Shown: piece by piece, positions 20,058 to 39,404 of the stretch
Position numbering within the stretch: the first letter of the stretch is position 1
Layout of the letters: each line of letters begins with the position of its first letter
Origin: an uncultured Candidatus Peribacteria bacterium
GTDB lineage: Bacteria; Patescibacteriota; Gracilibacteria; Peribacterales; Peribacteraceae
Length of the DNA: 39,435 nt
Assembly: GCA_964562735.1 (NCBI GenBank)
Contig: CAZLUK010000092.1
Span: 1-39,435 of the forward strand
Reading direction: 5' to 3'
Position numbers and translations under genes: made by a program
The notes under the pieces: generated by a model
The model's database searches: none
Told to the model about the DNA's origin: nothing
What the model saw: the letters and a program-made list of their open reading frames with translations, nothing else

Positions 20058-20141
20058 TGGCGGAGCCAACGGGACTCGAACCCGCGACCTCTTCCGTGAC
20101 AGGGAAGCGCTCTAACCATCAGCCTAGGCTGATACGGCTCC
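20058..20141 (-). tRNA. tRNA-Asp(GTC)-like variant with a 7-nt-longer, palindromic D-arm region (function uncertain)
   Basis: RNA sense: GGAGCCGTA-TCAGCCTAGGCTGA-TGGTTAGAGCGCTTCCCTGTCACGGAAGAGGTCGCGGGTTCGAGTCCCGTTGGCTCCGCCA (84 nt). Identical to the canonical gene except that GCTCAGC of the D-arm is replaced by TCAGCCTAGGCTGA. Confidence 0.5.
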
Positions 20142-20277: not shown

Positions 20278-20361
20278 TGGCGGAGCCAACGGGATTCGAA
20301 CCCGCGACCTCTTCCGTGACAGGGAAGCGCTCTAACCATCAGCCTAGGCTGATACGGCTCC
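20278..20361 (-). tRNA. tRNA-Asp(GTC)-like variant with palindromic D-arm region (function uncertain)
   Basis: Same 84-nt structure as 20058..20141, with one T-loop difference (TTCGAATCC). Separated from the canonical tRNA-Asp by the conserved 27-nt spacer. Confidence 0.5.
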
Positions 20362-28617: not shown

Positions 28618-28671
28618 AATGCTTTCTAAGACTTTAGAATAGGCTTTTTCGGGAAAAGTGGGTACTGGAAA
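28618..28671. repeat. 54-nt direct repeat, copy 1 (upstream of the ATPase gene)
   Basis: AATGCTTTCTAAGACTTTAGAATAGGCTTTTTCGGGAAAAGTGGGTACTGGAAA. Matches 29703..29756 at about 47 of 54 positions. Confidence 0.75.
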
Positions 28672-28748: not shown

Positions 28749-29663
28749 TCAAGACATTTCCTTTTGGTTGAGCAAATAACTTGGGTAGTGCTCAAGAATA
28801 TTTGTAGCACATTGCATATGTGATAAAAATCGATTTGGGTTTCTTTTTTTTCTGAAAAGTCTACTTCGCTCCAGTAAGTCGAATTGGTGGTTCATCAAAC
28901 TTTTAAAACTCGTTTCTACTTCTGCATCACGGACACGTTGTGGCAGCAAATCCAAGCATGTGCTAAGTGCATCATTATACGGACAATATTCTTTGTACCA
29001 TTTCATCCTCTTGCGCTCGTTAAGAGGAGCTTCTCCTTTCTTATCACGTAGAGAACTACGGGCAGTCATTTCAAGACTATTTTCAGTTGCAGGTCGGTTG
29101 TTATCAGCCTCTGCTAGTTTACAACTTTCTTCCAAGGCATTCATTCCATACACAAGTTGAGTGAAACACGATTGCTGTGATCCTACTCGTATGTCCACTG
29201 ATCGTGGTAACTCGGCTGGATACAGGAATCCATCCTTCTGTTGTAGATTTGCAATGGTCTGAAGATACGCTCCGACCTTCTCCACAACGTGAAAATCCAA
29301 ATACGGAAATATAAAAGCCTGGCGCTCTCCTGCTGCGGTCTTGGTAAAATTCGCAAGAGTCGAAGCCTGATCCTTTGTTAGAGGAATGTCTAAACAGTTA
29401 CCCATCTCTTTCTTAAGATCATAGTGGAATTTTTTTACACCATGTTGAATCCTACGGGCAGTTCCATTTTCACCACTCAATATTTGGATTATTTTTCTAA
29501 CGCTGAAAAAACGTATGCCTTCAACATCAAGTTTACAGACATGTTCTACTGCATCCAGTAGATCCTGTACAGTAACGATTCTTTTTGAATGTACCTCTCT
29601 AATACTTTCGCCAGGGATCTGATAAGAGCTCGGAGAGAGACTATAGGGGTTATCTTCATCCAT
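28749..29663 (-). CDS. hypothetical protein encoded on an AT-rich insert
   Basis: 304-aa ORF. Base composition is visibly more AT-rich than the flanking genes. No recognisable domain. Flanked by the 54-nt direct repeats. Confidence 0.6.
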   Translation of the reverse strand: MDEDNPYSLSPSSYQIPGESIREVHSKRIVTVQDLLDAVEHVCKLDVEGIRFFSVRKIIQILSGENGTARRIQHGVKKFHYDLKKEMGNCLDIPLTKDQASTLANFTKTAAGERQAFIFPYLDFHVVEKVGAYLQTIANLQQKDGFLYPAELPRSVDIRVGSQQSCFTQLVYGMNALEESCKLAEADNNRPATENSLEMTARSSLRDKKGEAPLNERKRMKWYKEYCPYNDALSTCLDLLPQRVRDAEVETSFKSLMNHQFDLLERSRLFRKKRNPNRFLSHMQCATNILEHYPSYLLNQKEMS

Positions 29664-29669
29664 ACATTT

Positions 29670-29697
29670 ATTATAATATATGAACAGATTTTGTCAA
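29670..29697 (-). promoter_or_regulatory. near-consensus promoter TTGACA-16-TATAAT, with the -10 ending 6 nt before the ATG at 29663
   Basis: Minus strand: TTGACA (29697..29692), 16-nt spacer, TATAAT (29675..29670), then AAATGT and the ATG. No room for an SD. Confidence 0.45.
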
Positions 29698-29702
29698 TAA
29701 GA

Positions 29703-29756
29703 AATGCTTTCTAGGGCTTCAGGATAGGATTTTTTCGGAAAAGTGGGTACTGGAAA
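29703..29756. repeat. 54-nt direct repeat, copy 2 (upstream of the 304-aa gene)
   Basis: AATGCTTTCTAGGGCTTCAGGATAGGATTTTTTCGGAAAAGTGGGTACTGGAAA. See 28618..28671. Confidence 0.75.
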
Positions 29757-29771
29757 CTAGGCATTGTGGCT

Positions 29772-29870
29772 TCAATACACCGTCTCCAGATAGCACTTCT
29801 CGCCCTTCGATGCGCTGCGCTTACTCAGGGCGAATCGTGCCGACGGAGAAAAAATTGGTGATATAGATGT
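29772..29870 (-). repeat. R3 repeat, copy 1: about 100-nt unit made of a hairpin plus a remnant of a paralog 3' end (..GEKCYLETVY*)
   Basis: Near-identical to 31753..31851 and 35280..35378. The minus strand reads ..GCACGATTCGCCC-22 nt-GGGCGAGAAGTGCTATCTGGAGACGGTGTATTGA. Confidence 0.7.
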
Positions 29871-30056
29871 CTAACAAACAGTCTTCAGATAGCACGATTC
29901 GCCCATCCTTCGCTCCGCTTTTTCTAAACATTGATCCACGGGCGAAGCTTCGGAGGGCTTCGCTTTCGTTGGTGCAGCAGAAATTATCATGACTAGTATA
30001 CAGTTTCAAGATAGCAACGCTCGCAGTATACGATCTCCGGCCGGTCCGGAGCGCTT
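29871..30056 (-). pseudogene. two further orphan 3'-end remnants of the Cys-rich paralog family
   Basis: Minus strand 29903..29871 encodes GESCYLKTVC*. Minus strand 30056..29993 encodes ..ASAPDRPEIVYCERCYLETVY*, directly downstream of the stop of paralog A. No upstream coding body exists for either. Confidence 0.6.
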
Positions 30057-30072
30057 GCCGGCCGTAGCGTCG

Positions 30073-31749
30073 TTAGTAGACAATTGAGAGATAGCATTCT
30101 TCGCAGTACACAATTTCGGGGCGCGAAGGCTGGTACGTCGTTTGGATCGATTTATTGCACTTCAAACATTCTCTCTGCCAGAGCCTGCGCGGATTACGGA
30201 GCATCATCCGTTCTTTCTGCCGGCATTCGGGACAGCATCGAGGAATCGGCAGATGTTGGCGACGATAGAACGAAAGTTCTTGCGGTATGACTCGATAGTT
30301 TTTTCCGCAATTCCTGCATGCCAGCAGCTCTTTTGCAATATCGTCCTTCGTATCGGCGATCCTGTCACTGAGCACGGTTGTCTGTGGTTGATATTCGCGT
30401 ACGTCCTTCTCGCGCCACGTGAATTTTCTCGCTATTGCCTCTTCCCTCCTCAACGGGAAATATTCGGAGGCCAGACTTTCGTTGTACGCAAACGTCGCGA
30501 TTGCGGGAGGGAAAAAGAGCCCCCATTCGCTGGTTTTTTCCATGTGCTTGATGAGCTTGGGCACGAGAGCGTCATACTCTTCTTGCGAGTACTGTTTATT
30601 CAAGATGCAGTGCTTCTTTCGCGTGAGTCCAATACAGCCAAAACAGTCGCTACAGTGATAGCACGTGTCGCAGTACAGCATCCGTTGCGAGTAGAAGATG
30701 TACAGGCAGTACGCAACGTTGTATGCCTCGATGGTCCCGAGTGTGTCGTAACAGAGCTCGGGCTTCAGGTACATATTTGAGCAGTCGTAATTGTCTTTCA
30801 CGTTCACGCCGACCGTAACCCATCGGCAGTCTTGGCTCTCGTTGACGTCGTAACAGTCTAAACAGTTCTGAGAATTTTCGATGTAATCGCCAGTGCAGTT
30901 TTCAGAGTTCACGATGTTTGAGTACTTGTGAAGTTTCTTCAGGTTAAGATCCTTCAGGTGTTTCTTTCCGGCTTCCAGCGCGGCGTGTGACCCAAGAAGT
31001 TCCGTGACGCGCTTCGCATACTCTTCTTTCGTCAGTTGTTCGTTGAAGATGCAGTATTTCTTCCTCGAAAGATTAGTGCAGAGACAGCAGTTGGCGCAGG
31101 ACTGTAAGTTCGACGATAGCAAGCAGTCCTGGCAGTTCTGGCTGAAGGACAGAAACATGCAGTTATAGGAACCGTACACACTGAAGCACTCGTAGCAGAG
31201 CTCCGAGTCGTAGAGATAGCAGCAATCCATGGAATTCTTGCACTTCTGGAAGAGCTTTCCGTAGTAGCAATCTTCGGCGTACTCGGACGAGTTGATGAGG
31301 TAACAGTTTTTGCAGTAGCCGGTGCCGGTCGTGAAGTCCGAATTCTCATTGGCGACCGTGACCATGGCAACTCGCGGCACTTTTTTCTGAAGCATCGCAT
31401 ATTGTTCGAAGAAGCTACGTGCAAAGTCGATGTCCTGTCCGTACTGCAATGGATCGAAGGCATCGCTTCGCCATTCTTCCTGCGAGTATACCGAGTACGG
31501 CTCGCCCCATGGCGCGTCATCGTGATATAGAGCGACGATGTCCTTTCCCGATTTCGTCGATTTCCTGCGGTACATGCATTGTTCGTTGCGGTGGCAGGCG
31601 CGGATTTGCAGGCGGCAGTCCGGACAGTACACCGGACGCGGCGGGTGAAACGTCGCTATGCCGAACGTGAAACCTATTTTTTCAAGAAATGCCTCTTCAT
31701 CCGGATGGATGATGAAACCCTGATTGCAGCGTTTGCAGGAAGACTCCAT
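30073..31749 (-). CDS. cysteine-ladder / zinc-ribbon protein, paralog A
   Basis: 558 aa. N-terminal CKRC..CPDCRLQIR..RNEQCMYRRK. Two Cys-ladder halves, each ending ..KKYCIFNEQLTKEEY or ..KKHCILNKQYSQEEY. C-terminal FYRRQHLPIPRCCPECRQKERMMLRNPRRLWQRECLKC-x17-CEECYLSIVY. Confidence 0.8.
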   Translation of the reverse strand: MESSCKRCNQGFIIHPDEEAFLEKIGFTFGIATFHPPRPVYCPDCRLQIRACHRNEQCMYRRKSTKSGKDIVALYHDDAPWGEPYSVYSQEEWRSDAFDPLQYGQDIDFARSFFEQYAMLQKKVPRVAMVTVANENSDFTTGTGYCKNCYLINSSEYAEDCYYGKLFQKCKNSMDCCYLYDSELCYECFSVYGSYNCMFLSFSQNCQDCLLSSNLQSCANCCLCTNLSRKKYCIFNEQLTKEEYAKRVTELLGSHAALEAGKKHLKDLNLKKLHKYSNIVNSENCTGDYIENSQNCLDCYDVNESQDCRWVTVGVNVKDNYDCSNMYLKPELCYDTLGTIEAYNVAYCLYIFYSQRMLYCDTCYHCSDCFGCIGLTRKKHCILNKQYSQEEYDALVPKLIKHMEKTSEWGLFFPPAIATFAYNESLASEYFPLRREEAIARKFTWREKDVREYQPQTTVLSDRIADTKDDIAKELLACRNCGKNYRVIPQELSFYRRQHLPIPRCCPECRQKERMMLRNPRRLWQRECLKCNKSIQTTYQPSRPEIVYCEECYLSIVY

Positions 31750-31752
31750 AGG

Positions 31753-31851
31753 TTAGTACACTGCCTCCAGATAGCACTTCTCGCCCTTCGATGCGCTGCG
31801 CTTACTCAGGGCGAATCGTGCCGACGGAGAAAAAATTGGTGACATAGATGC
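31753..31851 (-). repeat. R3 repeat, copy 2 (fills the whole spacer between paralogs B and A)
   Basis: Hairpin arms GCACTTCTCGCCC (31774..31786) and GGGCGAATCGTGC (31809..31821) with a 22-nt loop. The remnant ..GEKCYLEAVY* ends 3 nt before the ATG of paralog A. Confidence 0.75.
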
Positions 31852-33564
31852 CTAATATATACTCTTCAGGTAGCACGATTCGCAATACACAATCTCCGGA
31901 CGTTCCGGAGCATAACTCGTTTGGATCTCTCGCTGACAGTTTTGACAAGTGCGTGTCCAGAGTCTGTAGGGAGTCCGCAGAGCCATGCGCCGCCGATGAC
32001 GCTCTTCTGGGTGCAATCGGGGGAGCGCAAGATGTTCGCGGCGATAGAAATCGAGTTCCTGTTTAATGATACGAAATGGCTTACCCGTCACTTCACAGAT
32101 GATCGCATAATCTAGTACGTCATCCTGCACCGCATCGATGATGGCGGGCAGATCGCTGCCCCGGATAGTTTTTGCAACCGTGGGAGGATCACCGGTCGTG
32201 GCTTTCCATTGCCAGCCCTTGGCGAGCACTTCTTCTTTGGTAAGCGGGAAGTGATCCTGAGCGAGCGTTTCGTTGTAGGCGAAAGGACTCATGGATACCG
32301 GAAAGAATTCACCCCACTCCTGCCCCGCGAAGCTGCCGTCAGGCAAGCGAAGTGGGGTCTTCTCCATGTGCTGGATGATCTTCGGCACGAGCTCGTTGTA
32401 TTCCTCCTCCGTGTACTGTTTGTTGAGAATACAATAGTGTTTGCTGGTGAGGCCGATGCACCCGAAACACTGCGTGCAGGAGCGAATGTTTTCACTGTAG
32501 TACACTTGTTCGCAAGTTGATGCGAAACTGTCGAACGCACAGCGTTGCGTAGTGCTGCCTGCTCCATGCATCTCATAGAGGATTTCCGCATTTTTCCCTG
32601 CGGAGCTGCAATCCATCATGTCTTTGCTTTTCCACCCGCACATTTGGCAGTGCCGACAATCTTCCGCGCCAAGTTGCACGAAGTAACAATCGATGCAATT
32701 TCGCGCTTGTTCGATGTAATTCCCCGAACAGTGTTCCGACTGGGTGATGCGTGCGCAGAGCGTGGGGAGTGTCACTTTCCAACGATCAAAAAATATTTTC
32801 TCTGTCGCAAACCTGCCATCAAACAATGCTTGACGCTTTGCTTCGAATTCCTCGCGGGAGACGGGTTTGTTATAGATGTGATATTCCTTCTCGCGTAAAT
32901 TCTTACAGCCGATGCAGTTGTGGCAATTACGACAGTCATCGAGGAGGATCGAATCCTGGCAGTTGCTGCAATCGTGACAGGAGAAACAGTGGTAGCAGTT
33001 GTTGCAGCCGACGCATTCGTACAACAGTTCTCCCTGCACGCAGCAAAGACAATCCATACAATTCTTGCCCATCATCCACGAGCTGTAGTAGACGTCTTGG
33101 CAGAGAAAACACGAGAATGCGAGGTAGCAGTTTTTGTTGTTCATGCCGAACGCGGTATAATCACTGTTTTCAGCGAGTCCATCTTGGTGCATGCCTCTGC
33201 GAGGTACTTTTTGCATCAGCGCTGCAAATTGGTCGAAGAATGTCTTCGTGAAATCCATATCGATCCCGTACTGCATCGGATCCCATGCATCGCTCGCCCA
33301 CGCAGATTCGGAGTAAACTACAAAGGGCTTGTCCTCAGAATATAAAGAGACCATCGGCTTGCCAGTCAGCGCACAGGTACGGCGGTAGAGATTTCGCTCG
33401 TTACGTAGTCCAAACCGTCGCTGGCATCGACAGGACGGACAGTGGGTTGGTGGAGGCAAAGGAAAACTTTTTCCATTGATGACCGGAGCAAGTTTATCCA
33501 ACAATTGGAGATCGTCTTCCATGAGCGTAAAGGCCAAGCTGCAACTAACGCAATGCTTCTGCAT
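31852..33564 (-). CDS. cysteine-ladder / zinc-ribbon protein, paralog B
   Basis: Same architecture as A. Start set at MQKHCVSCS (33564) by analogy with the A, C and D N-termini; the ORF extends to 33621, where it would overlap the divergent MFS gene. The C-terminus is ..LPRLHPEERHRRRMALRTPYRLWTRTCQNC-x17-CESCYLKSIY. Confidence 0.8.
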   Translation of the reverse strand: MQKHCVSCSLAFTLMEDDLQLLDKLAPVINGKSFPLPPPTHCPSCRCQRRFGLRNERNLYRRTCALTGKPMVSLYSEDKPFVVYSESAWASDAWDPMQYGIDMDFTKTFFDQFAALMQKVPRRGMHQDGLAENSDYTAFGMNNKNCYLAFSCFLCQDVYYSSWMMGKNCMDCLCCVQGELLYECVGCNNCYHCFSCHDCSNCQDSILLDDCRNCHNCIGCKNLREKEYHIYNKPVSREEFEAKRQALFDGRFATEKIFFDRWKVTLPTLCARITQSEHCSGNYIEQARNCIDCYFVQLGAEDCRHCQMCGWKSKDMMDCSSAGKNAEILYEMHGAGSTTQRCAFDSFASTCEQVYYSENIRSCTQCFGCIGLTSKHYCILNKQYTEEEYNELVPKIIQHMEKTPLRLPDGSFAGQEWGEFFPVSMSPFAYNETLAQDHFPLTKEEVLAKGWQWKATTGDPPTVAKTIRGSDLPAIIDAVQDDVLDYAIICEVTGKPFRIIKQELDFYRREHLALPRLHPEERHRRRMALRTPYRLWTRTCQNCQREIQTSYAPERPEIVYCESCYLKSIY

Positions 33565-33611
33565 GAGGATATATTCTATCCCCATTTCCGGATCGAAGGT
33601 ACTATTATCGC

Positions 33612-34892
33612 ATGCATTCAAAGCGAAAGGATCTGTGGCTGTGGGCTTCCTATGACTTCGCCAATTCGATCGCGCTCATCAGTCTCTCGTTTTATTTCGG
33701 ACTATGGTTCATTTCAGAGCAGCACGCATCCGATGTCTGGATCAGTACGTCGGTTGCGGTATCGACGGTTGCCATGCTCTTTACGTTGCCGGTCCTTGGT
33801 AAAATGTCCGATCGCGCCGGGAAGCGCATGCCGTTTCTGATCGGGTGCTCGCTCCTCTGCATCGCGTCACTCATCGCACTCGGCCTCTTTACGGGGAGAG
33901 TGGAGCATCTCACGTTTATGTCCACCATGATCATTTTTGTCCTCTATTCCGCATTCAATTTTTTCTACAATTCCTGTTTCGCCTTCTACGATGCGTTTCT
34001 GAAAGAACTAACACAGAATGCACACTCACTCGAACGCACATCGGGGTTCGGCAACGGGATGGGGCAAGTAGGGAATGTTGTAGCGTTGCTCATTGCCATT
34101 CCTCTCGCGCAGGGGAGCATTTCCATTCTCGGTTTCAGCGGGAAGCCGCTGATTTTCATTGTCGCCGGTGTACTGTTTCTCCTCTTCGCGTTGCCGACTT
34201 TTCTTTTTCTAAAAGATAAGCCGCATGCGGCGGAACCGGTAAAATTGGGACGCAGCTTACGTGAAACCCTTCACGATCTGTGGCATATCCGGGAATATCC
34301 GGGGGTGCTGTCGTATCTCATCACGTATTGTCTCTTTGCCGACGCACTCCTCACGCTACAGCTGTTCGCTTCCTCGTATTTGGAGACCGTTGGGCACATG
34401 CCCGATACGCAGAAAAACATCACATTCATGCTTGCGGTTGGTACGGGAATCATCGGATCCTTCACCAGTCCGCTCTTCGTTCGGCTCTTCGGTTCCCGCA
34501 AGCGCGCGATCTCGGCCTTCATCGCGATGTGGACGGTGGTGCTCGCGCTCGTCGCTGTGGCAACTGTACCGTGGCTCTTCATGGTACTGATTATCTTGAA
34601 CGGCTTCGCATTCGGAGCGCTTTTTTCTCTTTCGCGCGCATTCTTTGCCGCTCTCGTCCCCGCAGACAAACAATCAGAGATGTTCGGCATCTATGCGCTC
34701 TTTGGGCGTACCGCATCCGTCTTCGGTCCACTCCTCTGGAGCGCGACAGCGCTCGCCTTCGCATCGTTCGGCGAAGATCGTTACCGGTTTTCCATCGTCG
34801 CGCTGGCAGTCCTCGTTCTTATCAGCTGGTTCACCATGCAACGAGTGAAAGAACCGCTGCATGCCAAGAGCTCTTCATCGTCATTGGTGTGA
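33612..34892 (+). CDS. MFS transporter (UMF1/Atg22-like family)
   Basis: 426 aa with about 12 hydrophobic segments. N-terminal signature WLWASYDFANSIALISLSFYFGLWF. Confidence 0.85.
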   Translation: MHSKRKDLWLWASYDFANSIALISLSFYFGLWFISEQHASDVWISTSVAVSTVAMLFTLPVLGKMSDRAGKRMPFLIGCSLLCIASLIALGLFTGRVEHLTFMSTMIIFVLYSAFNFFYNSCFAFYDAFLKELTQNAHSLERTSGFGNGMGQVGNVVALLIAIPLAQGSISILGFSGKPLIFIVAGVLFLLFALPTFLFLKDKPHAAEPVKLGRSLRETLHDLWHIREYPGVLSYLITYCLFADALLTLQLFASSYLETVGHMPDTQKNITFMLAVGTGIIGSFTSPLFVRLFGSRKRAISAFIAMWTVVLALVAVATVPWLFMVLIILNGFAFGALFSLSRAFFAALVPADKQSEMFGIYALFGRTASVFGPLLWSATALAFASFGEDRYRFSIVALAVLVLISWFTMQRVKEPLHAKSSSSSLV

Positions 34893-34971
34893 AATGGATC
34901 ATACGATTCTTGACTGGAGAAAAGAGCCATCAAGGTTTCCCGCAGCCACGGCGGTCGTGACCGCCCGTGGC

Positions 34972-35163
34972 GCAGACGGGACGCCGCGTCCCGAGGAAGA
35001 AGAATCATACGTTTCTTCGCTCTCACATTTATCACTACAAGCATGGCATTTTCGCTATCAATGTCCTGCTATTTTTGTTCACCAGCCGCTTAAATCGTTG
35101 GTTAACAAACGGCGAATCTTGCGCAGAATTGGTTACTGTTGCGGGACGCGGCGTCCCGTCTGC
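34972..35163. mobile_element. MITE-like repeat, family 2 (copy without nested element)
   Basis: Terminal inverted repeats GCAGACGGGACGCCGCGTCCCG (34972..34993) and CGGGACGCGGCGTCCCGTCTGC (35142..35163). The interior is collinear with 25954..26021 and 26209..26243. Confidence 0.55.
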
Positions 35164-35279
35164 GGGGAGAGAAGAAGAAGCGGGGCATGAAAAATATGAT
35201 GTGCGTTTTCAATCCATCAAAGTTTCTCCAACCAAGAATCGTATGATCCCCTCTTGCCAGCCGAAACGTCTAGGCCGAA

Positions 35280-35378
35280 TTAGTACACTGCCTCCAGATA
35301 GCACTTCTCGCCCTTCGATGCGCTGCGCTTACTCAGGGCGAATCGTGCCGACGGAGAAAAAATTGGTGACATAGATGT
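35280..35378 (-). repeat. R3 repeat, copy 3 (directly downstream of the paralog C remnant)
   Basis: Near-identical to 31753..31851, including the hairpin and the ..GEKCYLEAVY* remnant. Confidence 0.75.
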
Positions 35379-36614
35379 CTAATAGACAGTCTTCAGATAG
35401 CACGATTCGCAGTACACAATCTCTCTTCGAGAGCCTGTCATTCGAGACCCTGAGGGGTCCTCAGACCCTCGAAGGGAGGGCTCCTCAGAGCCTCGAACGG
35501 CAGAACGCTCAGGGCTGTACGTCGTCCGAATCGGTTTGCGGCATTTCCCGCATTCTCGGTCCCAGATTTTTGGAGGATTATGCATGCGGAAACGGTCTCT
35601 ATGCCGTTCGGTTGGATGACTAGATTCTCTTTTGAATCCGGACACCCTAATGAATTTGCTACACTCTTTTAATGAAAAACATCTCACAAGTTCTCACATC
35701 TTTCCAAAAGTGTACGTCATGGCAGCCATTCAGATAGTCGCCGCTGCAATCCTCACAGTTTACTAATTGCATTCCCCGACGGGGTAGACTCGCCATGGCT
35801 GCCCGAAAACGAATTTTCATCTCTTCTATGTAGGCGTAGGATCCAGTATCGAATACTAGCGACGTTTTCGATACTCTTCCTCCGAGAGCCCTTCATTGAA
35901 CCAGTGAAACCGTTTCTGACGCAGGCCATAGCATCCGATGCAATCAGAACAACCCTTAAGATCGTAACCGAAGATGCAATTATTACAGCTTTCAGAGTTC
36001 TGCAAATAGCGGCAATTGTAGAGTCTGCGGGAATCAAGGCATTCATAACAGAGTTCACTATCACCCATAAAATAACAGTCAACCAGGTATTTGCTATGTG
36101 TGCAGGGAGCTGCGCAGTAGTAACAATTCTCGACGAACCATGAGCCGCAGGTCATAAAGCAGTTCTTTCCGAAGGAAAAATCCGTCGTATATTCACAATT
36201 CTCACTATTGACTCCGTTGTCGTTCATCATCGCCAGATGTGGCACACGGTGATTGACCTCAAAAAACTGTTCGAGAAACGGTCGGCTCAGATCCACTGCC
36301 TGTCCATACGCGAATGGATCCCACTCTCCCCACCAACAACTGTGGCAGTACACCGGAAACGGCGCATCTTTGGCGTACAGTGCGATAATTTTCTTATTGC
36401 AACGAGCGCACGAACGCCCATACAAAGATCGTTCGTTGCGCCATGCGCTGCGCCGCTGCATGCGGCACATCGGACAGTGAATGGGCGCAGGAATCAGATA
36501 TTTCTTTCCGCCGAAGACCGGCGAGACTTTATCGTAAAACGTCAGATCGTTGCTCGTGACATCGAAGCTTTGCTTGCACCAGCCGTTTGCGCAGGTTTTC
36601 TGCATGCGCTTCAT
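35379..36614 (-). pseudogene. cysteine-ladder / zinc-ribbon protein, paralog C (decayed)
   Basis: The N-terminal 252 codons are intact (35856..36614) and include a complete CARC-x17-CHSC ribbon. 35688..35858 contains several in-frame stops plus a frameshifted CEDCSGDYLNGCHDV fragment. The C-terminal ~100 codons (35379..35687) are in the original frame. About 200 codons are missing relative to A, B and D. Confidence 0.7.
35424..35501 (-). repeat. 78-nt in-frame quasi-palindromic insertion in the C-terminal zinc ribbon (paralog C copy)
   Basis: Encodes SAVRGSEEPSLRGSEDPSGSRMTGSR between ..PER and REIVYCESC. Nested inverted repeats TTCGAG..CTGAGG..CCTCAG..CTCGAA and a 24-nt tandem repeat. Confidence 0.6.
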
Positions 36615-36615
36615 G

Positions 36616-36927
36616 CTACACCGAAATACCGTGCGCCTTCACCTCCTCGGCAAGTGTGAAATACTTGTTTTTCAGATCTTCTTCATGGAGACAGACCGTT
36701 TCAATCCGTCGGCTCAGCGGACGGCGTAATTTTCGGAGTGTCGTGTTCTCATCATGCACGGAAGGCAGGAAAGGCTTCACGATGACGGCGATATCGATGT
36801 CACTGTCCTCGGTTGAGTTGTCCGCTGCCATGGAGCCGAAGAGACGGACATCAATGACGGGAATGCCCGCTTCTAGGAGGATTTTTTTATAGGCAATGGC
36901 CACTGCGAGAGCTTGAAAGCGATTCAT
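36616..36927 (-). CDS. nucleotidyltransferase-domain protein (MNT-type antitoxin partner of HEPN)
   Basis: LFGSMAADNSTEDSDIDIAVIV is a pol-beta-superfamily NTase motif. The ATG overlaps the HEPN stop (ATGA). The stop lies 1 nt before the ATG of paralog C. Confidence 0.8.
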   Translation of the reverse strand: MNRFQALAVAIAYKKILLEAGIPVIDVRLFGSMAADNSTEDSDIDIAVIVKPFLPSVHDENTTLRKLRRPLSRRIETVCLHEEDLKNKYFTLAEEVKAHGISV

Positions 36928-37313
36928 AGGTGGAGGGCTTGGTCCAGTTTTTTGAAAAGGAGATCGGTATTTTTGAGCCACGCAGCAACATTTTCTTTTG
37001 TCGCCTTTTCTTCATGCCAGCGTTGATCTTCATAGCGAGCTGCTGTGCTGTAGCCGCTCAAGTCATCAAGGAGATCTTCTTCCTGCTCACTCCAATGTGA
37101 CGATAGTTGTTCTGCAAGAGCGGAGAGGTCATGTGTTGGAGGCGGATTTTTGTCTTTTTCAAGGATGAAGACTGCTTTCAGAGCCTTTTCTACCGCAAGG
37201 TGGCAATGGAAAAGTGCGAGTGCGTACTTGCCGTTTTTCGCGAGTAACCTGGCGGCATCGAGTGCATCATGTGCTCCTCTATGCCAGTGCTTGATTATCT
37301 CCGCTTGCAACAT
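36924..37313 (-). CDS. HEPN-domain protein (toxin partner of MNT)
   Basis: 129 aa. ..ALALFHCHLAVEKALKAVFI.. and ..YSTAARYED.. are typical of small HEPN proteins paired with minimal nucleotidyltransferases. Confidence 0.8.
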   Translation of the reverse strand: MLQAEIIKHWHRGAHDALDAARLLAKNGKYALALFHCHLAVEKALKAVFILEKDKNPPPTHDLSALAEQLSSHWSEQEEDLLDDLSGYSTAARYEDQRWHEEKATKENVAAWLKNTDLLFKKLDQALHL

Positions 37314-37318
37314 GACTT

Positions 37319-37345
37319 TTAGTATACCGCAGATAGAGCGAGAAG
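37319..37345 (-). repeat. degenerate paralog 3'-end remnant (R3-like, hairpin arm deleted) 5 nt upstream of the HEPN start
   Basis: The minus strand reads ..GCTCTATCTGCGGTATACTAA, then AAGTC, then ATG. Compare TGCTATCTAGAAACTGTATACTAA at the end of paralog D. Confidence 0.45.
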
Positions 37346-37517
37346 CGGAAATTTTTACGGAGCCTTAGAATCATTCCCCACCTTTTGTACGTGAACTGTT
37401 GGCTCCCTGGAACATGATGAAGCTTGTGTCATGAGACCAATCGACTAAGTAAAATTTTCCGAGGGAGAACGATGATGCGATCAGAGAATCAAATATAGGA
37501 ATGATGGATATGGATAG

Positions 37518-39242
37518 TTAGTATACAGTTTCTAGATAGCACGATTCGCAGTACACGATCTCTCTTCGAGAGCCTGTCATTCGAGACCCTGAGGGGTCCT
37601 CAGACCCTCGAAGGGATGGGTCCTCAGAGCCTCGAACGGCCGGACGGTCCGGAGCATAGGTTGTTTCGATTGCCGTTTCGCACTTCGTGCATGTTCTCGC
37701 ATACAGTTTCAGCGGATTGCGAAGTGCAAGACGCTTCGCATATCGCTGGTCGGGATGGAGGCGGGGTACGGGTAGCCGTAAAGATCGATAAAAATCGAGT
37801 TCCTGTTTAAGAATTTTAAAAGACCGCTTCGTTTCTTCGCATTCGATCGCCCAGTTCACGATGTCGTACGGAATATCGTCGATAGCGTCGGGTAATTGGA
37901 CTGCTAAAATTGTCTTGGTGACTTCCATTGGCGGTTCTGTGTGCTCAAACCATGCGAATCCTTCCGCTGCTGCCTGTTCTTTCGTCAGTGGAAAGTACGA
38001 GAGCGCAGTGCTTTCGTTATACGCGAACGGCGAACACACTTGCGGCAAAAATCTGCCCCATTCCCCCGTCTTTTTCATATGTGTAGCGAGCTGCGATCGC
38101 AGCTTTACGTATTCCTCTTTCTCATATTGCTTATTGAGGATGCAGTACTGCATTTTTTTAGCCCCGACGCAGCCGAATATATTTTTCGAGTGAAACGCCA
38201 TGTCGCAGTACTCAATGTCCGATGAGTCGAAGACGGAACAGGAATGACGGGCGTTGTAGGTACCTACTGCCGACTGCAGGTCATAGCACAGTTCGCCGGT
38301 GATGCACCCGGACAACAGGCTGTCCTTGGCCTGGCTAGCCAGGATCACATCTGACAAATCTTCGCTTTCCCAGGTGTCGAAACAGTTATGACATCCCTTG
38401 GATCCCTGAATGTAATCTCCCGTACAGTCCTCGGAGGAAAGAATATGTGCGAACTTCACGATGCGATGACTGCGGAGTTCAAGAAATTCTTTCCAGTTCT
38501 TTTGCTGCTGATGATAGGAACCGGAGAGCAGTTCTTGCTTCTGTTTCTCATATTCTTCCTTCGTGAGCTGCTTACTGCGAATGCAGTATGATTTTTTCAC
38601 GAGATTCGTACCGAGAATACAGTCACTACAGCCGATACAATCACTGATGAAGGCGCAGCTGCTACAATTCTGCGAATCGAAACCGAATGACGTGTCGTAG
38701 CAGTGATACGAATCTCCCAGAAAGTAGCAGCGTTCGTTGTGATTGCTGGTGTCCGAGTCTGAAATATTCTTGTTGTGCATGCCGAACGTGCCGTACATGC
38801 AGTCTTCATTGAAATCTCCGCCGAAGATCAAATAACAATTCCGGTTTCCCTGCGTCATATTGCAGTAATCCGAGTTTTCGGCCTTGATGTTCGTGAGCGC
38901 GAGCCGCGGAACTTTGAGCTGGAGTTCGCAGAGTTGCTCGAAGAACGGCCGGTTCCAATCGATATCGCGCCCATACGAGAGCGGGTCCCACTTGTCGCTC
39001 CACCAGACATCGGCTTTGTACACGGTGTACGGTTTTTCCGGAGCATAGATGGAAATGATCGGATCGCCCGTGAAATCACACTTCCTGCGATACAAATTTC
39101 GGCCGTTTCGGAAAAGAAGCCGCCGCTTGTGTCCACACGGAACGCAGTATGATGGCTCCGGCTCATCTGGAAATTTTTTCAGCAGTTCTATAGCCTTCGC
39201 GGAGAGCGAAAAGTGTTGATTGCAGGCAGCACAGGTGGACAT
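37518..39242 (-). CDS. cysteine-ladder / zinc-ribbon protein, paralog D (carries the 78-nt in-frame insertion)
   Basis: Same architecture as A and B. Start set at MSTCAACNQHF (39242) by analogy; the ORF opens at TTG 39356. The C-terminus is ..RTCTKC..APDRP[AVRGSEDPSLRGSEDPSGSRMTGSRR]EIVYCESCYLETVY. Confidence 0.8.
   Translation of the reverse strand: MSTCAACNQHFSLSAKAIELLKKFPDEPEPSYCVPCGHKRRLLFRNGRNLYRRKCDFTGDPIISIYAPEKPYTVYKADVWWSDKWDPLSYGRDIDWNRPFFEQLCELQLKVPRLALTNIKAENSDYCNMTQGNRNCYLIFGGDFNEDCMYGTFGMHNKNISDSDTSNHNERCYFLGDSYHCYDTSFGFDSQNCSSCAFISDCIGCSDCILGTNLVKKSYCIRSKQLTKEEYEKQKQELLSGSYHQQQKNWKEFLELRSHRIVKFAHILSSEDCTGDYIQGSKGCHNCFDTWESEDLSDVILASQAKDSLLSGCITGELCYDLQSAVGTYNARHSCSVFDSSDIEYCDMAFHSKNIFGCVGAKKMQYCILNKQYEKEEYVKLRSQLATHMKKTGEWGRFLPQVCSPFAYNESTALSYFPLTKEQAAAEGFAWFEHTEPPMEVTKTILAVQLPDAIDDIPYDIVNWAIECEETKRSFKILKQELDFYRSLRLPVPRLHPDQRYAKRLALRNPLKLYARTCTKCETAIETTYAPDRPAVRGSEDPSLRGSEDPSGSRMTGSRREIVYCESCYLETVY
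37563..37640 (-). repeat. 78-nt in-frame quasi-palindromic insertion in the C-terminal zinc ribbon (paralog D copy)
   Basis: 26 extra codons relative to A and B, at the same position as in paralog C. Hairpin-forming TTCGAG-ggt-CTGAGG-acc-CCTCAG-ggt-CTCGAA. Confidence 0.6.
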
Positions 39243-39404
39243 TGAACTTAGTCTATCATCTCTAAGGTAACAATTTTCACCCGCCCCTCCATCGTCAATT
39301 GCGTGAAATACAGGATCACATGATTCCTTGGTGGATAAAGTTTTTCCAATACACAATCAGATGACCTACATTGCTGCGTATTGGAACGCTCTCCCCCAGC
39401 CCGC

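Follow-up and report, generated by a model that had tools for sequence, protein, structure and literature searches.

Why should a stretch of bacterial DNA carry more ends of a gene than it carries genes? This question is raised by the window, i.e. the whole stretch of 39,435 nt that we analysed (contig CAZLUK010000092.1, from an uncultured Candidatus Peribacteria bacterium). Its minus strand encodes four members of a Cys-rich protein family (paralogs A, B, C and D, ~560 residues each), whose C-termini form a zinc ribbon ending in ..RPEIVYCExCYLxxVY-stop. Further copies of these last codons, here called tails when they end a gene and orphan tails when they stand outside one, lie between the genes, together with three copies of a ~100-nt, hairpin-containing unit, R3. 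An earlier note, made from the sequence alone, had related the extra ends either to repeated recombination at a fixed place inside the conserved 3' end or to a shared RNA element built from coding sequence. We find that R3 is best explained as the local form, recently homogenised in this genome, of a composite element with a wide distribution in Peribacteria, and that units of this type probably recur because the last codons of the paralogs carry both the promoter of the next gene and the homology used in recombination.

The R3 unit in the window

The three copies reported in the earlier note (R3a, R3b and R3c; all coordinates are given in Table 1) are confirmed. A 42-nt core is identical in 3/3 copies, with 0 matches expected by chance (100 shuffles), and the number of identical positions over 99 nt is 98 for b/c, 93 for a/b and 94 for a/c. 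R3 is not an assembly duplicate, because the flanks (50 nt on each side) are identical at 6-14/50 positions, i.e. at the random level. The length of ~100 nt is right for R3 itself (99 nt), but the true repeat extends to 144 nt, because ~45 nt from the end of the upstream tail, for instance that of paralog B, also belong to it. Similarly, R3b and R3c do follow a paralog 3' end, as had been claimed for each copy, but R3a is preceded by an orphan tail and not by a gene.

The antisense GCACGATTCGCCC, the 22-nt loop and the sense GGGCGAGAAGTGCTATCTGGAGGCAGTGTACTAA, which reads GEKCYLEAVY-stop, are all present, and the two copies do pair, in a hairpin that is larger than the 6+4 bp first proposed (8+5 bp with RNAfold). 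The gene's own GCGAATCGTGC is, as noticed before, an 11-nt perfect complement of the antisense copy, hereafter the arm, which begins 30 nt past the gene stop. The three other remnants that had been listed outside R3 are real as well, the one upstream of the HEPN gene being degenerate.

A composite junction recurrent in Peribacteria

The comparison set is made of 78 fetched loci that encode relatives of paralog B and come from Peribacteria, Peregrinibacteria or Gracilibacteria assemblies, mostly as tandem arrays. With the window included, the set comprises 189 full-length and 28 orphan tails, the latter distributed over 21 loci (20 fetched loci and the window) and having the form G-E-[EK]-C-Y-L-x-x-V-Y-stop. 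The 78 loci provide 25 further composites, in which the order of the parts is constant: gene tail, spacer, antisense arm, hairpin, orphan tail. Every orphan tail begins at the same base, GG/GCGA (the slash marks the junction), at which the 3' arm of a hairpin with the core CCCTGAG..loop..CGAAGGG passes into it. Nearly always, a complete tail stands upstream of the hairpin and belongs to a gene or to an older remnant. About half of the orphan tails have the ATG of the next paralog 0-9 nt downstream. Hairpins of this kind are found in ~12% of the paralog junctions, ~88% being without one. The arrangement gene tail-spacer-arm-hairpin-orphan tail-next gene is thus a conserved architecture. The R3 sequence itself is more restricted: its exact 42-nt core has 0 matches in the genome contig collection, and a gapped R3 pattern retrieves from the metagenome contig collection only units of the type found in two sibling arrays, L054 and L064.

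The constant coding-like end of these units could mean that ribosomes translate the orphan codons, whether they read through the TAG of the upstream gene, giving a 33-residue extension ending in CYLxxVY, or use a small open reading frame (ORF; MSPIFSPSARFALSKRSASKGEKCYLEAVY in the window, and MGEECYLKEVY elsewhere). In the window, R3 is indeed an open stretch of exactly 33 codons that continues the frame of the upstream gene past its TAG, with an ATG 6 nt beyond this stop; moreover, orphan variation across genomes is found mainly at third codon positions, and an ATG stands directly before GGC in 11/27 orphans. However, only 7/25 units are in frame, as against a chance value of 1/3, and only 5 of them are open, while the upstream stops are TAA, TAG and TGA alike and the open frame upstream of the orphan measures 12-73 codons and shows no conserved start. 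The real tails, with which the orphans evolve in concert, are the source of the codon-like variation, and the unusual ending QTVH of L054 is found in both its genes and its orphans. There is also no suppressor tRNA in the window. Programmed readthrough or bypass and a small ORF are rejected on the frame statistics, and we consider translation of the orphan codons highly improbable.

At one junction of the comparison set, in L005 (~1440-1540), a paralog start (promoter, ATG and ~9 codons, MQHTCRNPC) is fused directly to the hairpin core and the orphan tail, the whole gene body being lost and only start, hairpin and tail remaining.

The tail as a candidate promoter of the next gene

The signals that precede these genes are seen in the paralog upstream regions that are not tails. 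In 80/120 of them, a TANNNT hexamer (mostly TATACT) starts at -16 to -11 from the ATG, with a peak at -14 to -12, and at paralog starts it ends 6-8 nt before the ATG. No purine-rich block is present, and G is depleted (7-15%) at the position where a Shine-Dalgarno sequence would stand. At tight tandem junctions, V-Y-stop is written GTA TAC TRR (GTATACTRR). The hexamer is present in 17/19 real tails when the next ATG is 3-9 nt away, vs 38/151 of the other ones (p = 7e-8), and the same holds for orphan tails, with 6/7 when the next ATG is tight vs 1/18 otherwise (p = 3e-4). Tails thus have two properties expected of a leaderless-type promoter: the -10 hexamer keeps a constant, short spacing to the ATG, and a Shine-Dalgarno sequence is lacking. 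A Shine-Dalgarno sequence within the tail itself (AAGGAGGT, from K-E-V) was also considered, and dropped; its spacing to the ATG would be ~14 nt, the non-tail upstream regions are devoid of a purine-rich block, and the TATACT hexamer sits at a fixed -13.

The window provides several examples. The gene starting at 29663 is preceded by TTGACA-16-TATAAT and then 6 nt, TAGAAT precedes paralog B and TAGACT precedes paralog D. For the HEPN gene, a TATACT lies inside the degenerate orphan tail, 7 nt from the ATG at 37313, a spacing that is typical of this genome. The sequences TAA-CCT-ATG (paralog A) and TAA-AAGTC-ATG (HEPN) were correctly read in the earlier note, in which the next gene was said to start 3-5 nt past the remnant stop; this is the normal tandem junction of the family.

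Altogether, the next gene, apparently leaderless, seems to have its -10 box within the last codons of the paralog before it. In Actinobacteria and Deinococcus, leaderless genes whose -10 box precedes the start by ~7 nt are common. The genes studied here resemble them in the position of TANNNT, which ends 6-8 nt before the ATG, and in the lack of a Shine-Dalgarno sequence; they differ in that the hexamer is contained in the end of the preceding paralog (last two codons and stop), where codon usage is biased accordingly, the resemblance being one of sequence. In addition, Ca. Peribacter riflensis has been listed among the 'SD-scarce' organisms (PMC10783764).

Palindromes other than R3-type hairpins are also found at paralog junctions. 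In ten loci (L003, L005, L006, L010, L011, L021, L027, L035, L061 and L066), genome-specific palindromes resembling miniature inverted-repeat transposable elements (MITEs) lie between tandem paralogs, with the -10 hexamer regenerated 6-8 nt before the next ATG. The palindrome of L027 is bounded by an 11-nt direct repeat, GGTATACTGAT, which duplicates the overlapping stop and -10.

Replacement of gene ends

Three sets of observations point to the exchange of gene ends within the tail. The first is the 3' end of paralog C, which shares an insertion with paralog D (88% identity over 146 nt) and its R3 with paralog B (98/99). As paralog B is without the insertion and paralog D without R3, the tail is the only segment common to B, C and D, and the end of paralog C is a mosaic with crossovers in the tail.

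The second comes from the sibling arrays L054 and L064, in which the genes g2/h2 (90% identical orthologs) and g3/h3 (88%) are adjacent in both and have orthologous neighbours. In L054, g2 ends in an S-type tail that precedes a hairpin. In L064, h2 has a new tail (..QPSRPEIVYCEQCYLSSVY-stop), and ~95 nt are inserted upstream of the old S-type tail, which is kept as a remnant. The same succession, i.e. a gene end of the QPSRPE(I) type, the motif GCTACGGCCGGCAAGCGC and a displaced older tail, is found in four lineages (paralog A of the window, L002, L043 and L064/L084).

The third is the asymmetry of tail types (x of CExC) on the two sides of the composites. Real tails are followed by an orphan in 0/113 cases for the E/K types vs 22/49 for the S/N/R/T types (Fisher p = 6e-14), and the orphans are of E/K type in 25/28 cases. 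Minority tails upstream and E/K orphans downstream are what the arrival of a module with a tail of its own, displacing the resident tail, would leave. The orthologs of paralog B (66-79% identity) have E, S or R tails, mostly without a hairpin, so that turnover is fast. Units are homogenised within a genome, as seen with the R3 copies of the window and with a pair in L061; in L054, two units are near-identical from the arm onward and have different spacers. The proposal of recombination or replacement at a fixed place in the 3' end is, with these three lines of evidence, supported in a modified form.

The ends that follow paralog A are the most complex of the window. They comprise, in this order, the E-type tail and its junction motif, the CERC remnant, a different, second hairpin, the GESC orphan, and finally the R3 hairpin with the GEKC orphan, and we read this stack as the probable outcome of three successive replacements, the oldest being the last. 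The second hairpin is of a type also found after CERC-type tails in L027, L006 and L008.

Integrative elements that enter gene 3' ends, classically those of tRNA and tmRNA genes, carry a replacement 3' end and leave the displaced end at the far junction. The paralog ends resemble this situation, as the functional gene keeps an intact incoming end, the original one survives downstream and remnants stack; unlike in those elements, the payload is ~65-95 nt (stop, spacer and hairpin), no integrase is found among the scanned ORFs of the window, and the homology is provided by the coding tail of the paralogs. They also recall the orphan C-terminal modules of rhs/cdiA loci, with serially displaced 3' fragments and a short homology block allowing end swaps, whereas here the fragments are the conserved last 11-23 codons, with neither variable domain, immunity gene nor functional diversification. 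A diversity-generating retroelement was rejected, as the differences between tails and orphans are not adenine-specific (e.g. T>G, TCG>AAG) and no reverse transcriptase is found among the scanned ORFs of the window.

Pairing between the arm and the tails

The arm consists of the 8-13 nt located just 5' of the hairpin core; its sequence, reverse-complemented, gives the CExC codons of the tail directly upstream. The arm follows the codons of that tail: TCC is matched by GGA in the arm, TCG by CGA, TCT by AGA, AAT by ATT, ACG by CGT, and TGT by ACA or CAC. Over 17 distinct tail/arm pairs, 92% of the cells are paired in this pairing, P1, a value somewhat inflated as the arm register was chosen as the best 11-mer match, although the arm always abuts the core; 5/11 pairs are changed on both sides. 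None of 500 shuffles (0/500) reaches the observed values, and slid registers give 23-45% of paired cells. The arm can alternatively pair with the orphan tail (P2). P1 and P2 are mutually exclusive, because they use the same strand, so that the alternative pairings suggested earlier do compete.

These pairings could form an RNA switch or terminator made partly of coding sequence, in which the arm would pair either with the upstream CExC codons (P1) or with the start of the orphan (P2). P1 encloses the last 7 codons and the stop; a ribosome finishing translation would melt P1 and let P2 form, and this would couple the translation of one paralog to termination, stability or the expression of the next paralog. 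Such a switch would account for a P1 of 8-13 nt that is perfect or nearly so in 18 composites, for its covariation with synonymous and codon-3 changes, for the mutual exclusion of P1 and P2 and for the ATG found at the foot of the P2 3' arm in 11/27 orphans. On the other hand, the folding energy of R3 as RNA is unexceptional (z = -0.8 vs shuffles, and no better on either strand), and no intrinsic terminator, i.e. a stem-loop followed by a U-run, is called at any R3 copy, the only T6 run of R3 lying upstream of the arm, in the P1 loop. The stem has A.C mismatches on the sense strand in many copies, which would be G.T wobbles on the other strand, and this does not favour a terminator in the sense RNA. 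P2, of only ~6-8 bp, reaches neither the -10 box nor the next start codon, the CERC-type tails are followed by a different hairpin and an orphan without any arm, and many units have no downstream gene. Finally, hairpin-templated mutation can give covariation without selection. All in all, we regard an RNA switch as unlikely.

Two further searches for structure were negative. Rfam gives no match in 29600-37700 even at E <= 1, its only hits at gathering score being tRNAs elsewhere in the window, and a second arm-tail pairing looked for at the QPSRPE/GCTACGGCCGGCAAGCGC junction yields no consistent structure across the four loci. An inversion switch between the gene's GCGAATCGTGC and the arm was rejected; it would give the end ..CESCRRRKNW-stop in the window, alternative ends of this kind are not conserved elsewhere, and no invertase is seen.

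The hairpin core is a generic palindrome

The core CCCTGAG..CGAAGGG is present in 5 copies in the window (0.01 expected), all located in or adjoining the paralogs: three in R3 and two in an insertion shared by paralogs C and D. It is found in 21/84 loci, on both strands, and about a dozen copies in Peribacteria loci, again on both strands, are without any tail. A fuller pattern, GTCACCCTGAGC..TCGAAGGGCGAC, has at least 120 exact matches among those listed, in many phyla, including Eremiobacterota, Bacteroidota, Alphaproteobacteria, Chloroflexi and Peregrinibacteria. The hairpin is thus not built simply from coding sequence, as had been proposed, its core being a generic palindrome that also occurs tail-less in Peribacteria and in many phyla. 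It has the properties of a repetitive extragenic palindromic (REP)-like sequence, i.e. a short imperfect palindrome present in many copies, mostly intergenic. The earlier note would have given up its proposal for a generic REP-like element; this description suits the core, but not the composite.

The 27-nt palindrome GTCACCCTGAGC..TCGAAGGGCGAC (loci L090-L169; e.g. L115 3532-3885 and L103 4433-4594) forms regular arrays in some genomes, and a Mucilaginibacter assembly has four copies with a period of 109 nt. It corresponds to no Rfam family, and a literature search by sequence gave nothing relevant, so this cosmopolitan palindrome seems to be undescribed in Rfam and in the searchable literature.

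Could the whole unit then be a generic, selfish REP- or MITE-like palindrome, with no link to the paralog family, the tail copies being incidental target duplications? The many phyla in which the fuller core is matched and the tail-less copies on both strands in Peribacteria are in line with this idea, as are the other, genome-specific palindromes at paralog junctions, among which that of L027 has an 11-nt repeat that looks like a target-site duplication. However, the duplication next to the R3-type hairpin is of 33 nt, with a constant start base at GG/GCGA and a constant orientation, the 5' flank repeats the upstream tail in inverted form, and the tail types on the two sides differ systematically; such features are not those of a target duplication made by a transposase. 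In the window, moreover, no core copy lies away from the paralogs. We thus hold this explanation to be improbable. A MITE in the strict sense, with a target-site duplication of 2-12 bp, was rejected, as the repeat is of 33 nt, imperfect, made of copies of different tail types and joined at a fixed place.

REP-type elements have often been proposed to act as mRNA 3' stabilisers or as terminators. R3 shares with REPs and with bacterial interspersed mosaic elements (BIMEs) a short, GC-rich, imperfect palindrome located just past stops, with many copies per genome and a core found across many phyla. It differs from them in that its palindrome is fused 3' to a 33-nt copy of a coding tail and 5' to inverted upstream codons, and no REP-associated tyrosine transposase (RAYT, TnpA-REP) is found among the 20 ORFs scanned in the 39-kb contig.

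A hairpin at the 3' end of each tandem unit, followed a few nt later by the next ORF, is also a property of integron cassettes, and the units could belong to an integron-like, site-specific cassette system in which the hairpin would be a folded recombination site and a dedicated recombinase, encoded elsewhere, would move the paralogs or their ends as cassettes. The junction at a constant base is consistent with it, and the G.T wobbles on one strand would fit a single-stranded DNA substrate. Nevertheless, attC core sites (RYYYAAC / GTTRRRY) are absent from the unit, the feet of the R3 stem (..GATTCGCCC and GGGCGAGAAG..) holding neither of them, so that R3 was rejected as an attC site. A Pfam scan of the 20 larger ORFs of the window reveals no recombinase, transposase or integrase, IntI included. 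The hairpin-less majority of the paralog junctions likewise differs from integrons, as does a repeat made of coding sequence. The exchanged pieces share at least 33 nt of homology, and ordinary recombination therefore suffices. A cassette system of this kind is very unlikely in our opinion.

The insertion of paralogs C and D, which contains two of the core copies, is a 78-nt, in-frame, palindromic one (AVRGSE[DE]PSLRGSEDPSGSRMTGSRR, at ~35422-35499 and ~37561-37638), absent from A and B; it splits the naturally palindromic codons for APERPE. On the plus strand it contains CCCTGAGG..CTCGAAGGG, a relative of the R3 hairpin core. The insertion is comparable to the Rickettsia palindromic elements (RPEs), in which palindromic DNA is tolerated at or in ORFs; R3 differs from RPEs in lying beyond the stop and in having a coding-like part that duplicates the end of its host gene.

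A proposed mechanism and its weak points

We favour, with moderate confidence, the explanation that recombination in the conserved tail copies modules made of a hairpin and a replacement tail into the 3' ends of paralogs, thereby stacking displaced tails. Between paralogs that are otherwise ~40-45% identical in protein, only the last ~33 nt are conspicuously conserved in their DNA sequence, and for this reason the tail can provide the homology for recombination between paralog ends. The tail also encodes the last CxxC of the C-terminal zinc ribbon. As it would serve both the zinc ribbon and the -10 box and spacing of the next gene, an insertion between tandem genes would be tolerated only with a copy of the tail on each side, and the duplication would thus be retained next to downstream genes.

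The module would consist of the replacement tail, stop, spacer, arm and hairpin, with tail sequence on both flanks. Any paralog end could receive a copy of it, through gene conversion, as we suggest, or through another form of recombination, with a left crossover in the 3' coding region and a right crossover in the tail. The original tail of the recipient, usually of the majority E/K type, would be pushed downstream as an orphan, and repeated rounds would stack orphans, as downstream of paralog A. The most likely role of the hairpin, and our preferred guess, is to mark the end of the transcript or to insulate the upstream ORF from the next promoter; alternatively, it might be a selfish passenger palindrome.

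Several observations weigh against this explanation or against parts of it. The sole replacement seen directly between siblings is of the longer QPSRPE type and not of the hairpin-plus-G-orphan type, and the collections contain no sibling of the window. A transcript-end role of the hairpin has to face the lack of a U-run, the unremarkable folding energy and the sense-strand mismatches already described. The covariation of arm and tail fits a selected RNA or DNA structure and a hairpin-templated 'correction' of a quasi-palindrome equally well. The promoter and leaderless statements are deduced from the sequence. The orphan of R3b is a poor -10 (GTGTACTAA-CCT-ATG, 3 nt), the sole exception among tight orphans, and as no gene follows R3a or R3c, the orphan copies of the window look like passengers rather than promoters. 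The origin of the first hairpin-tail fusion and the constant GG/GCGA junction are also left unexplained, a plausible basis for the latter being microhomology between the generic 3' arm GGGCGA and the TGCGA of the tail.

A more daring reading, to which we give little credence, is that the composite would be an enzyme-free 'homing' module, i.e. a hairpin with its own replacement gene end, whose arm, matched at every base to the upstream coding sequence, would form a translation-sensitive P1/P2 structure and so insulate each paralog from the leaderless promoter of the next. Such a module would spread through the paralog family by using the conserved, promoter-bearing last codons as homology arms.

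The paralog family and the features of the locus

The family of paralogs A-D has more than 4,900 members, every one of which is annotated as a hypothetical protein, and is confined to Peregrinibacteria and their relatives. Pfam and NCBIfam give only a weak treble-clef zinc finger, and there is no PDB match by sequence or by fold, for an AlphaFold model of the family that is confident (predicted local distance difference test, pLDDT, 82; predicted template modelling score, pTM, 0.85). A Cys-rich gene cluster has been mentioned for Ca. Peribacter riflensis (PMC4736985), and the family may correspond to it.

Table 1. Tails, orphan tails, R3 units and paralogs of the locus, with their positions in the window.
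Feature	Position	Strand	Remarks
Remnant 1, orphan tail MGESCYLKTVC-stop	29871-29903	minus	Joined to its own hairpin at GG/GCGA; upstream partner of the R3a arm
R3a	29772-29870	minus	Follows an orphan tail (remnant 1), not a gene; 93-94/99 identical to the others
R3a parts	arm 29840-29830; core 29830-29803; orphan tail GEKCYLETVY-stop 29804-29772	minus	
Second, different palindromic hairpin GCGAAGCCCTCCGAAGCTTCGCCC ... GAGCGAAGGATG	29904-29963	minus	Precedes remnant 1
Remnant 2, longer displaced 3' end ..APDRPEIVYCERCYLETVY-stop	29993-30056	minus	Ends in GTATACTAG, ATG 4 nt later
Junction motif GCTACGGCCGGCAAGCGC	30051-30068	minus	4 nt past the paralog A stop
Paralog A	30073-31749	minus	
Paralog A functional tail CEECYLSIVY-stop	30073-30105	minus	Most upstream tail of the locus's tail stack
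R3b	31753-31851	minus	Entire intergenic space, from the paralog B stop (31852-31854) to the paralog A ATG (31749)
R3b spacer	31851-31822	minus	Has the T6 run
R3b antisense arm GCACGATTCGC	31821-31811	minus	
R3b hairpin core CCCTGAG..CGAAGGG	31811-31784	minus	
R3b orphan tail GEKCYLEAVY-stop	31785-31753	minus	
Paralog B	31852-33621	minus	
Paralog B functional tail CESCYLKSIY-stop	31852-31884	minus	Its GCGAATCGTGC pairs perfectly with the R3b arm (P1)
R3c	35280-35378	minus	Follows the broken paralog C; no gene after R3c
R3c parts	arm 35348-35338; core 35338-35311; orphan tail 35312-35280	minus	
Paralog C, broken	35856-36614 + 35379-35687	minus	
Paralog C tail CESCYLKTVY-stop	35379-35411	minus	Upstream partner of the R3c arm; within the 144-nt unit
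Degenerate orphan tail	37319-37345	minus	A few middle bases missing; TATACT kept at 37326-37321
Paralog D	37518-39356	minus	
Paralog D tail CESCYLETVY-stop	37518-37550	minus	S-type; no arm, hairpin or orphan downstream ('empty' comparison site)

Paralog C is a pseudogene, whose N-terminal part (252 codons) and C-terminal part (102 codons) are in different frames; ~450 nt of the middle are gone, and the 3' end still has its near-perfect R3. A HEPN/nucleotidyltransferase (MNT) pair (36616-37345) is wedged exactly into a paralog junction, with the MNT stop 1 nt from the paralog C ATG. Between the stop of a major facilitator superfamily (MFS) transporter gene and R3c lies a foldback element of ~355 nt (34896-35249) with nested inverted repeats, one of 27 nt (34896-34922 / 35223-35249, 93%) and a perfect one of 23 nt (34971-34993 / 35142-35164). 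A 54-nt direct repeat (87% identical) is found at 28618-28671 and 29703-29756, on both sides of an unannotated gene (28749-29663), its upstream copy being located between R3a and the perfect TTGACA-16-TATAAT promoter of this gene. The remaining genes of the window are ordinary housekeeping ones, and its best protein matches belong without exception to the Peribacteria/Peregrinibacteria. Adjoining tRNA-Asp, two extra matches to the tRNA model (38-39 bits; 20064-20130 and 20284-20350, minus strand), neither of which is called by ARAGORN, may be degenerate or unusual tRNAs.

What the composite junctions mean for Peribacteria

The composite combines a REP-like palindrome with a 3'-end replacement that leaves remnants, two things that are known in kind. 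With it, the pile of 'extra' gene ends at this locus can be explained without a new enzyme system. There is also a practical side for annotation, as orphan tails and hairpins give rise to small ORFs that are spurious, and can lead to wrongly placed gene ends in metagenome-assembled genomes.

We know of almost nothing on gene expression signals in Peribacteria, and our results make concrete predictions for where transcripts would start and end in these bacteria. What deserves attention is a coding tail that doubles as promoter and as recombination handle: the same 33 nt are apparently at once a protein C-terminus, a promoter or spacing signal for a leaderless gene, and the handle by which ends are exchanged. 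If the homing module were true, C-terminal codons, promoter and recombination site would coincide in these 33 nt, and selfish or regulatory DNA would have a novel means of persisting at the ends of genes in the streamlined genomes of the candidate phyla radiation (CPR). More generally, the composite junctions reveal how a very large, uncharacterised and CPR-specific family, with its thousands of members in tandem arrays, is organised and reshuffled.

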